Positions 32,663 through 60,712 of a DNA stretch of 64,000 nt are shown one piece after another. Under the pieces are notes generated by a model, which did not search any database, had not been told where the DNA came from, and saw only the letters and a list, made by a program, of their open reading frames with translations. Made by a program: the position numbers and the translations under genes. The number at the start of each line of letters is the position of its first letter. Within the stretch, counting starts at the first letter, position 1. The stretch spans positions 27,729 to 91,728 of the forward strand of contig QZJO01000013.1 of NCBI GenBank assembly GCA_003599755.1, read 5' to 3'. Origin of the DNA: Candidatus Parcubacteria bacterium. GTDB taxonomy: Bacteria; Patescibacteriota; Minisyncoccia; Sungbacterales; SURF-37.

Positions 32663-32776
32663 TCCCGTTAGAGACCGCGGTCGCGGTATATAAATTATGC
32701 GGATGCTGAGAATAGTAATTACTCAGGGTAATCGACGGGCGGGAAACTGTGCGACCGCGCCCTGTCTCTAACGGGA
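32663..32776 (+). mobile_element. 114-bp start-codon element, family A, copy 1 (hit)
   Basis: A-TGGA[TCCCGTTAGAGAC...GTCTCTAACGGGA]TGGA; 13-bp TIR, 4-bp duplication. Confidence 0.85.
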
Positions 32777-57621: not shown

Positions 57622-57809
57622 AACCCGTTGAATTGCGCAAAAAATCGGCAGGCGAATTGGCGGACCTTTTGCGGGAACGCCAGGTTCGCCGCGAGGAGCT
57701 CGTACTGCTTCTGGGTCAGCATAAAGCCAAGAATGTCAAGGAACTGGCGACCGTGCGCCGTGACATCGCGCGCATCAAAACCATCCTTGCTCAACAGCCA
57801 CGATCATGA
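57618..57809 (+). CDS. rpmC: 50S ribosomal protein L29
   Basis: [17 protein letters not shown]; operon position. Confidence 0.94.
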
Positions 57810-57810
57810 G

Positions 57811-57924
57811 CCCCATCAGAGACCGCGGTCGCGGTATACAAATCATGCAGATAATGGCAGCATCGATTACCAGTAATATTCAACGGGCAGGGAGCGGTAC
57901 GACCGCGACCTGTCTCTAACGGGA
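57811..57924 (+). mobile_element. 114-bp start-codon element, family A, copy 2 (rpsQ)
   Basis: A-TGAG[CCCCATCAGAGAC...GTCTCTAACGGGA]TGAG; 85/114 ungapped identity to copy 1 by hand count. Confidence 0.85.
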
Positions 57925-59652: not shown

Positions 59653-60039
59653 ATGGATGCCCTGTCGGACTTCTTCATACGTATCAAGAACGGCTATCGC
59701 GCGAAGCGTGCGACGGTCATTGTTCCGCATTCCAAATTGAAGGCGGAGGTTGCGCGCGTGCTGCAATCGCGGGGCTACATCGGCGAGATCGAAAAGAAGG
59801 GCCGGAAAGTTCGTAAGTTTTTGGAACTCGAATTGCGCTATCCCAACGGCGAACCCGCTCTGGAATCGGTCAAGTTGATCTCCAAGCCGTCGCGTAAGCT
59901 CTACATGAAAAAGGGTGAAATCCGTCCGATCCGCCAAGGATTCGGCCTGCTCGTCATCTCGACGTCGCGCGGCATCATGAGCGGCGAGGAAGCTCGGAAG
60001 GCGGGGCTCGGCGGTATGGCGATTGCGGAAATTTGGTAA
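59653..60039 (+). CDS. rpsH: 30S ribosomal protein S8
   Basis: RIKN, ISKPSRKLY, ISTSRGIM. Confidence 0.97.
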   Translation: MDALSDFFIRIKNGYRAKRATVIVPHSKLKAEVARVLQSRGYIGEIEKKGRKVRKFLELELRYPNGEPALESVKLISKPSRKLYMKKGEIRPIRQGFGLLVISTSRGIMSGEEARKAGLGGMAIAEIW

Positions 60040-60053
60040 TACATCTTCATGAG

Positions 60054-60167
60054 TCCCGTTAGAAACCGCGATCGCGCATCAACCATACGACATATGCCCA
60101 TGAAAGAAACGCATAATTTCAGTAACTATCAGAAAGCGATTCAGATCGCGATCTGTTTCTAACGGGA
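60054..60167 (+). mobile_element. 114-bp start-codon element, family A, copy 3 (rplF)
   Basis: A-TGAG[TCCCGTTAGAAAC...GTTTCTAACGGGA]TGAG; same length, different interior. Confidence 0.85.
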
Positions 60168-60712
60168 TGAGTCGCATCGGCAAACAACCCATCGAACTTC
60201 CCAGCGGCGTGAGCGCCCGCTTTACCGATGGCGCCCTCACGGTCACCGGTCCGAAAGGGACGCTTGCCCGGACGATTCGCCCGGAGGTGACGATCACGAT
60301 CGAGGGCACCGTGCTTTCCGTGGCACCGGCCAAAGAGACGCGCGACACGCCCGCATATTGGGGTCTCACGCGGGCGCTCATCGCGAACATGGTGGAAGGC
60401 GTAGCCAAAGGATTTACGAGAAAATTAGAGATTGAAGGCGTCGGCTATCGCGCGACACTGGACGGCCAGACGCTCGTGCTCGCCATCGGATTTTCCCACC
60501 CCGTACGTATCCCGCCGCCCGAGGGCATAACCTTCGCGGTGGAAAAAAACGCAGTGACGGTTTCAGGCGCGGACAAGGAATTGGTCGGCGACACGGCCGC
60601 GACGATCCGCCGCATTCGGCCGCCGGAACCTTATAAAGGAAAAGGTATCCGCTATGCCGGCGAAATCATCCGGCGCAAGGCCGGCAAGAAGGCCGCCGCC
60701 GCGGGCGCATAA
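60167..60712 (+). CDS. rplF: 50S ribosomal protein L6
   Basis: MSRIGKQPI, GVGYRA, PEPYKGKGIRY. Confidence 0.98.
   Translation: MSRIGKQPIELPSGVSARFTDGALTVTGPKGTLARTIRPEVTITIEGTVLSVAPAKETRDTPAYWGLTRALIANMVEGVAKGFTRKLEIEGVGYRATLDGQTLVLAIGFSHPVRIPPPEGITFAVEKNAVTVSGADKELVGDTAATIRRIRPPEPYKGKGIRYAGEIIRRKAGKKAAAAGA

Follow-up and report, generated by a model that had tools for sequence, protein, structure and literature searches.

The 114-nt unit between the ribosomal protein genes rpsH and rplF in the window, the 64,000-nt stretch of a 929-kb Candidatus Parcubacteria genome analyzed here, is best read as a gene-less mobile element placed at a start codon, likely mobilized in trans by a GIY-YIG nuclease and carrying an open reading frame (ORF) that likely re-initiates ribosomes on the host gene. 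We put the probability of this reading at roughly 0.6. The unit (copy 3, 60054-60167, forward strand, terminal T...A pair included) follows rpsH (S8, 59653-60039) and precedes an intact rplF (L6, 60167-60712), both on the same strand. Its left arm (60054-60073) consists of an outer stem of 13 nt (60054-60066) and an inner stem of 7 nt (60067-60073), and its right arm (60144-60167) of the inner stem (60144-60150), a 4-nt bulge (60151-60154) and the outer stem (60155-60167), within which lies a TAA stop codon (60160-60162). The bulge marks the orientation of the element. A 4-bp target duplication flanks the unit, with the left copy, TGAG (60050-60053), including the remainder of the original start codon (60049-60051) and the right copy at 60168-60171; the last A of copy 3 serves as the first letter of the rplF ATG, a start codon that is thereby rebuilt. 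A 37-codon ORF (60049-60162) extends from the leftover ATG, 9 nt after the rpsH stop, to the right-arm TAA, 4 nt before the rplF ATG, and contains in-frame ATGs at 60094 and 60100.

Two further 114-nt copies on the forward strand were present in the window as the first-pass annotation had described, including the bulges CCCT, ACCT and ATCT of the three copies and the two compensatory pairs of changes in copy 3. Copy 2 (57811-57924), with a decayed left end, interrupts the ATGA in which the rpmC stop (57807-57809) and the rpsQ start (57924) overlapped, and carries a 37-codon ORF (57806-57919). Copy 1 (32663-32776) is located on the start of a HIT-family gene 3' of hisS; its leftover-ATG ORF ends after 11 codons (32691) and a second ORF of 24 codons runs from 32697 to the TAA of the right arm (32769). 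A 220-nt stretch spanning copy 3 was recovered with the same letters in a contig of one DNA run, possibly the source sample, while the contigs of three DNA runs contained no excision, circle, empty allele or element-skipping joint and are uninformative on absence. A nucleotide-level empty site was found in none of the close relatives. Among the rplF leaders of 29 relatives the element was present in 0 of the 26 parsed, six had spacers of 2-17 nt only, and the rpsH-rplF spacer here would be 9 nt without the element and one duplicate. Copy 3 is therefore regarded as a lineage-specific insertion. Four of the relatives' rplF leaders (L141, L147, L154 and L157) contain a different hairpin family that starts with GGGCTT and ends with GGC before the ATG, and with this second family the rpsH-rplF junction is an insertion hot spot.

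Target duplication was frequent in the family. An exact 4-bp duplication bounded 64 of 94 elements, compared to 16 (maximum 24) when flanks were paired by shuffling, while duplications of 3 bp and 5 bp were found for nine and five of the 94, respectively. An initial reading of 5 or 6 bp was replaced after this analysis by 4 bp plus a terminal pair, which was T-A in 82, C-G in ten and C-A in two elements. The base before the left duplicate differed from the last base of the element in 11 of 78 cases, so that the element itself contributes the opening base of the rebuilt codon; insertion accordingly changed start codons from ATG to GTG, or from GTG or TTG to ATG. Scans anchored on the right arm (126 loci) and the left arm (124 loci) gave 220 deduplicated copies, of which 175 had 105-125-nt cores with a canonical right end. 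In this larger set 104 of the 175 had an exact 4-bp duplication, with TGAA (63) and TGGA (20) dominating as a narrower set of targets than gene starts generally. A start codon abutted the bulged end in 148 of the 175 copies and the other end in two, while a crude background for the window's own genome comprised 255 matching starts and 5711 matching sites outside ORFs. Start-codon placement is thus either targeted or strongly filtered by selection, the two not being separable here. The tetramer TCAT occurs just 5' of the stem on the strand opposite the start codon, as in the published consensus of the NTS hairpins considered below, perhaps by chance; if the nuclease reads a TCAT flank, start-codon targeting would follow from sequence.

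The arms covaried well beyond the three copies of the window. Three variable arm pairs switch between A-T and G-C in the 175 copies, and all three matched in 147 of them compared to 35.6 (maximum 53) after permutation. Significance was taken from such permutation counts, and since the copies are kin p-values are overstated. All eight matched combinations occurred, and 133 of 341 pairs with related interiors carried different matched combinations, indicating that double changes recurred; the arms have so been kept complementary. The earlier statement that the ends pair in all copies holds for copies 1 and 3, for which folding z scores were -5.7 and -5.4 with none of 200 shuffles as good, and was overstated for copy 2, which folds more weakly (z = -2.8, equalled by 3 of 200 shuffles) owing to the decay of its left end. 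The outer stem had a probability of 0.98 across the 175 copies. With DNA parameters the bulge register proposed from the three copies was preferred in 144 of the 175 (0.79 for copy 3), in agreement with an unpaired bulge, yet the bulge pyrimidine covaried with the inner stem (G/C/C in 84 and A/T/T in 66 of 175), which makes a second register possible. RNA parameters split the registers 95 versus 61 of 175, and the mRNA strand of copy 3 preferred the other register (0.92).

A strand-specific RNA structure was considered and rejected, as G-U versus A-C mismatches (44/30 and 55/31 in raw counts) were not clearly biased when counted per site; one of the sets used (set B) contained some 18 right ends placed in the wrong register by an extra A, together with about eight false short pairings, and these were removed for later counts. 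From mutations the pairing is therefore not assignable to DNA or RNA. Nested insertions of other small hairpin elements were located in the scan sets at the stem junction of the left arm (eight) and right arm (two), with two in the interior and one ambiguous, and further insertions in the right-arm bulge, a hot spot in the relatives, were found in hand-picked loci of genome G017 (eight) and in the window's own genome (one). Insertion occurs on DNA, and the stem-junction insertions therefore suggest a fold formed by single-stranded DNA. This clustering could also owe something to a sequence preference or to a small number of composite founders. Recognition by fold and distance had been proposed; complementary arms are in line with the first part, and the distance part is weak, as length is narrow and not fixed. 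A folded single-stranded DNA substrate is the reading that we infer and favor.

The lock on length did not survive the larger sample. The 220 bulged copies had a median length of 118 nt (interquartile range 116-120) with 191 within 108-126 nt and only ten at exactly 114 nt, while the eight members in the window's own genome measured 114, 114, 114, 114, 116, 116, 118 and 117 nt. Sister subfamilies with the same ends range from 66 to 291 nt, and deletion forms of 79-82 nt retain both arms. Indel events numbered 38 per 368 substitutions in 23 related pairs, or about one in ten, and length modulo 3 was mildly skewed (81/59/51, p 0.02) among copies that are kin and not independent. The gapless identity of copies 1 and 2 was confirmed at 85/114, with 62/114 for copies 1 and 3 and 54/114 for copies 2 and 3. 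For the interiors, copies 1 and 2 were identical at 45 of 70 positions and copy 3 was near background (24/70 and 18/70). A freely replaceable interior, as first described, is contradicted by the larger set, where 119 of 175 interiors were linked into a single cluster by similarities exceeding the shuffled maximum, and sequence comparison points to interiors that are diverged homologues rather than a free slot. Interiors were A+T-rich, with a G+C content of 40% in copy 3 compared to 59% in its flanks.

The interior was found to contain an ORF, termed here the relay ORF, that terminates with the TAA of the right arm and leaves 4 nt to the host start codon. Stop codons were depleted in the relay frame only (239 versus 333 +/- 16) and ATGs cluster 64-81 nt from the element end. 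An ATG-started ORF of at least 13 codons reaching the right-arm stop was present in 82 of the 175 copies versus 16.6 +/- 3.7 after shuffling, in 42 of 106 mutually dissimilar interiors versus 10.9, and in 39 of 72 independent metagenome copies unused in forming the idea versus 7.6. It was present in 80 of the 148 copies at starts versus two of the 27 elsewhere (Fisher p 4e-6) and was absent or broken in 93 of the 175, with 1-nt indels occurring within relay ORFs. Fifteen copies of other subfamilies had no consistent relay frame. A functional relay peptide was rejected since mismatches by codon position were 90/108/98 in 22 pairs (p 0.44); codon positions mutate equally, and so translation would matter and not the peptide. 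In copy 2 the ATGA overlap of rpmC and rpsQ was split by the insertion and re-linked through the 37-codon ORF, copy 3 is linked likewise to rplF, and copy 1 has two short ORFs in series. The two ATGs, previously offered as sites for ribosome shunting, are explained instead by the target duplication and a short coupling ORF. Translational coupling requires very short distances, in the source as far as accessible (PMC10666635), and the +4 stop-to-start spacing fits this. The relay ORF is thus predicted, from its frame and position, as a likely means of handing ribosomes to the host gene by coupling. Loss of the anti-Shine-Dalgarno sequence was discarded as a reason for coupling, as the 16S tail keeps a CTCCT core. 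This core is present at the 16S 3' end on contig C1 of the genome (L643, C1:4153), where the gene match covers 1596 nt relative to a 1533-position model. The tail deviates from the usual sequence.

Approximately 20 elements sharing these 9-nt end cores, 66-275 nt from core to core, were identified in the window's own genome, nearly all of them on housekeeping gene starts including murG, cysS, rplS, nusA, typA, rplI and ychF, with names read from translations. A right end followed by a start codon was found in 49 of 61 related genomes at up to 39 copies each, compared to 0-1 matches for the reversed control. Records with relatives of the element were almost all titled as Patescibacteria/CPR lineages, and the strict bulged right end occurred in three of 301 genomes across the phylum, all three in the same class as the window. 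Viral contigs gave 120 one-end matches, 17 of them with chance-like or unchecked pairings, and only two short paired matches (L020 and L120), and these demonstrate no viral reservoir for the element. Modal sizes differed by genome, at 98 nt in G032 and 101 or 110 nt in G017. In G032, a complete genome, many 98-nt copies (L476-L492) have interiors that differ strongly without gaps and targets that are often TTTA/TAAA rather than start codons. A 98-nt copy within the gyrB 5' end of the window's own genome (C1:254772-254869) supplies an in-frame ATG and a new N-terminus, and in-frame ORFs of this kind were found in nine of the 27 non-start copies versus three by shuffling. Head-to-tail stacks of two to three units at the regenerated target, resembling cassette arrays, were noted in G017 (L481, L482, L485 and L486) and in the window's own genome (C4:6977-7218). 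A right-end variant with one extra A recurs at about 18 loci among L327-L445 and at C4:61795 of the window's own genome; it is found at the gene-facing end with a stop-to-start spacing of 5 nt.

Full-length relatives of 270-293 bp encode as their only gene a GIY-YIG nuclease of about 86 residues. In two 275-nt copies of the window's own genome the space between the ends is taken up by a GIY-YIG ORF of 86 residues (PF01541, E 3.5e-15; nuclease gene at C2:12094-12351) whose stop overlaps the host ATG, and all duplication-bounded elements of 260-293 nt found had such an ORF except the composite L407. The nearest solved relatives of the enzyme are UPF0213 and SLX1 proteins. A tree was built of 62 homologues, the best matches in relatives with two added for their ends, and the catalytic residues Y5, G18, H30 and E62 were invariant in all 62 rows, with Y16 and R26 in 61. 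Both element ends were present at 38 of 41 nucleases in one clade versus 0 of 21 on the other side of the tree, a split with support of 94/80, which is not strong. Among the 38, the duplication was found for 24, a host start at the end for 25 and the leftover ATG in the nuclease frame for 14, while at least ten of the other 21 had inverted repeats of another type, CCC...GGG, that followed the clades of the tree. In a supported subclade (98/96), with L308, L318 and L475 among its members, both the outer stems and the frame of the stop agree with those of the bulged subfamily. The nearest parent of that subfamily shares about 13 terminal bases and the stop frame with it, and none of the nuclease-bearing elements recovered had its inner stem and bulge. 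Three other GIY-YIG arrangements were observed in the window's own genome, namely a gene between a duplicated tRNA-gene 5' part and the intact tRNA (L161, C10:118033-118245), a gene flanked by a 15-bp inverted repeat inside the 23S rRNA gene (L162, C1:96371-96574) and a third element type with 22-bp CCCG...CGGG ends unlike the others (L164, C10:123535-123738). GIY-YIG enzymes hydrolyze DNA, and to our knowledge they are not known to join it. From its linkage to the ends the nuclease is the best candidate for the mobilizer, a linkage that would also be expected of a passenger gene.

That passenger role belongs to a rather unlikely alternative, an ordinary MITE in which an as yet unrecognized DDE-type transposase acts on double-stranded inverted repeats while the arms are kept matched by hairpin-mediated conversion. 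A 4-bp (3-5) duplication around terminal inverted repeats is what DDE enzymes classically leave, and the copies are old enough (interiors in the window 64% identical at best) that a transposase could have been lost. However, the paired ends examined enclosed no transposase, including at spacings of 0.7-3.5 kb, in searches with five transposase families (six transposase/RT families in all). The DDE families were recorded in just two to 11 of the 61 genomes (DDE_Tnp_1 in 11, IS1380-type in three, IS701-type in two), and those richest in DDE_Tnp_1, G020 and G033, were without an element end; the window's own genome had no DDE_Tnp_1, IS1595, Y1 (PF01797), rve or RT match. Distinct nuclease clades have distinct ends, and strict orientation and start-codon placement are atypical for MITEs. 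An RNA intermediate via RT was also rejected, as RT was present in 24 of the 61 genomes and in neither the window's own genome (G000) nor G017.

Less probable still is a fold that acts mainly on mRNA, by shunting between ATGs, processing or splicing, with a host function keeping the arms paired. It would account for the strong folding of the mRNA strand (z -5.4), the outer-stem probability given above and ends that stay paired while interiors diverge, but the first base of the start codon and its flank would be buried in the stem, the frame-specific interior ORF implies ribosome read-through and not skipping, and the mRNA strand has neither a G-U over A-C bias nor an unambiguous bulge register. 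The element likewise matched no Rfam family, the only window matches at gathering score being two tRNAs. Very improbable is the suggestion in the first-pass annotation of a HUH/REP-type or integron attC-type substrate, which would be read by a Y1 transposase or tyrosine recombinase. The hairpin is bulged, one tyrosine recombinase is encoded in the genome, and the ends contain GTTAGA and TCTAAC, which we take to resemble integron core sites. An attC site has an inverse core 5' of the core site, inner boxes, crossover inside the core and no host duplication; here the core order is reversed and inner L boxes are not evident. Variable host-derived 4-bp duplications lie outside the ends, and neither HUH nor attC chemistry is known to make them; a Y1 match is absent from the genome, and the likeness was given up.

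Under the favored reading, mobilization in trans by a GIY-YIG nuclease, the gene-less 114-bp unit would insert in a 4-bp target duplication at a host start codon with its last base rebuilding the codon. The nuclease of about 86 residues from full-length relatives would act through a folded single strand: it would cut the hairpin in single-stranded form and make staggered cuts in the target, mostly A-TGRA, leaving the insertion to be completed by repair enzymes of the host. The joining step may be target-primed copying or host repair after staggered cuts, which is a guess. Single strands may come from replication forks or DNA uptake, and a ComEC-family gene is present in the genome. Arms would stay matched either because only paired stems are substrates or because they convert each other while folded, and a length near 118 nt would reflect common descent, an A-rich initiation zone and a relay ORF of about 22 codons and not a molecular ruler. 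The interior ORF would then re-initiate ribosomes on the host gene.

A broader picture, for which we consider the odds balanced, is one of transposase-free transposons of about 280 bp whose GIY-YIG enzyme reads the single-stranded DNA fold of its own ends, inserts at start codons, is itself expressed from the host ATG and returns ribosomes to the host gene, with clade-specific ends and gene-less offspring that keep the fold and the relay ORF. If true, few self-encoded mobile elements would be smaller, and they would use a type of nuclease that is not known to power DNA transposition by itself; should the nuclease alone move the element, for which the odds are about even, this would be categorically new. 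Streamlined genomes could then accumulate mobile DNA while their genes stay active, even within operons for ribosomal proteins. For single-stranded DNA tools beyond Ssn, many natural pairs of nuclease and hairpin would become available, and in annotation the element hairpins would not be riboswitch-like leaders and adjacent starts would be treated as rebuilt. A length ruler around a free interior, which fails as stated, is not the important part. No description of the hairpin element family was found in the literature searched, with subscription journals and the Ssn supplements outside the search, and NCBIfam held no curated family for the nuclease; the GIY-YIG mini-element family, with copy 3 as a non-autonomous member, is apparently undescribed.

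Several known systems share features with the element. MIRUs (mycobacterial interspersed repetitive units), short repeats reportedly described by Supply et al. 1997, resemble it as far as the available descriptions extend in start-codon insertion, 4-nt direct repeats and an ORF coupled to the host gene (PMC12548453, PMC3184786). In those descriptions MIRUs have a -4 overlap, imperfect ends and a parent enzyme that is not known, whereas the present element has a 20-bp bulged terminal stem, a +4 spacing in the bulged subfamily, a rebuilt start codon and a nuclease-only full form; 148 of its 175 copies were at starts and 82 of 175 had a predicted relay ORF. Bacterial MITEs such as Correia, ERIC, RUP and Nezha are, in the portion of the review available, likewise gene-less with terminal inverted repeats, target duplication and a long stem-loop (PMC3184786). 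Terminal inverted repeats without a transposase gene and a target-site duplication were found here as well, but no IS that shares these ends and encodes a DDE transposase was found at 0.7-3.5 kb with five families, and unlike MITEs, as there described, the element has a parent with a GIY-YIG nuclease and no recognized transposase and a fixed orientation on start codons.

Small GIY-YIG genes have been described in non-intron insertions of CPR rRNA genes, which are unlike group I/II introns and for which homing is no explanation, in the accessible text (PMC11270868). L162 in the 23S gene is one such insertion; inverted repeats, duplications and start-codon insertions are not described in that text (PMC11270868). 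Ssn (Chenal et al. 2025) is a single-domain GIY-YIG enzyme that cuts single-stranded DNA beside its own hairpin and ignores the loop, and an IS-like origin was raised by its authors; the main text makes no mention of CPR, Patescibacteria or start codons (PMC11893778). As in Ssn so far as the main text describes it, a single-domain GIY-YIG gene (about 90 aa here, catalytic residues intact) accompanies its own oriented palindromic repeat. Ssn genes are there flanked by separate local 20-50-nt hairpins (NTS/SRM), whereas the two ends of the present element pair across the gene, with a target duplication and start-codon targeting in addition. The element enzyme was placed outside the cd10448 clade, judged by three NTS-flanked GIY-YIG proxies from viral contigs that stood apart from all 62 CPR proteins on a long branch of their own (FastTree, 83 columns, support 100, with a long-branch warning). 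By analogy with these systems, the element would be described as MIRU-like in translation and MITE-like in anatomy, with an enzyme that is conceptually closest to Ssn.
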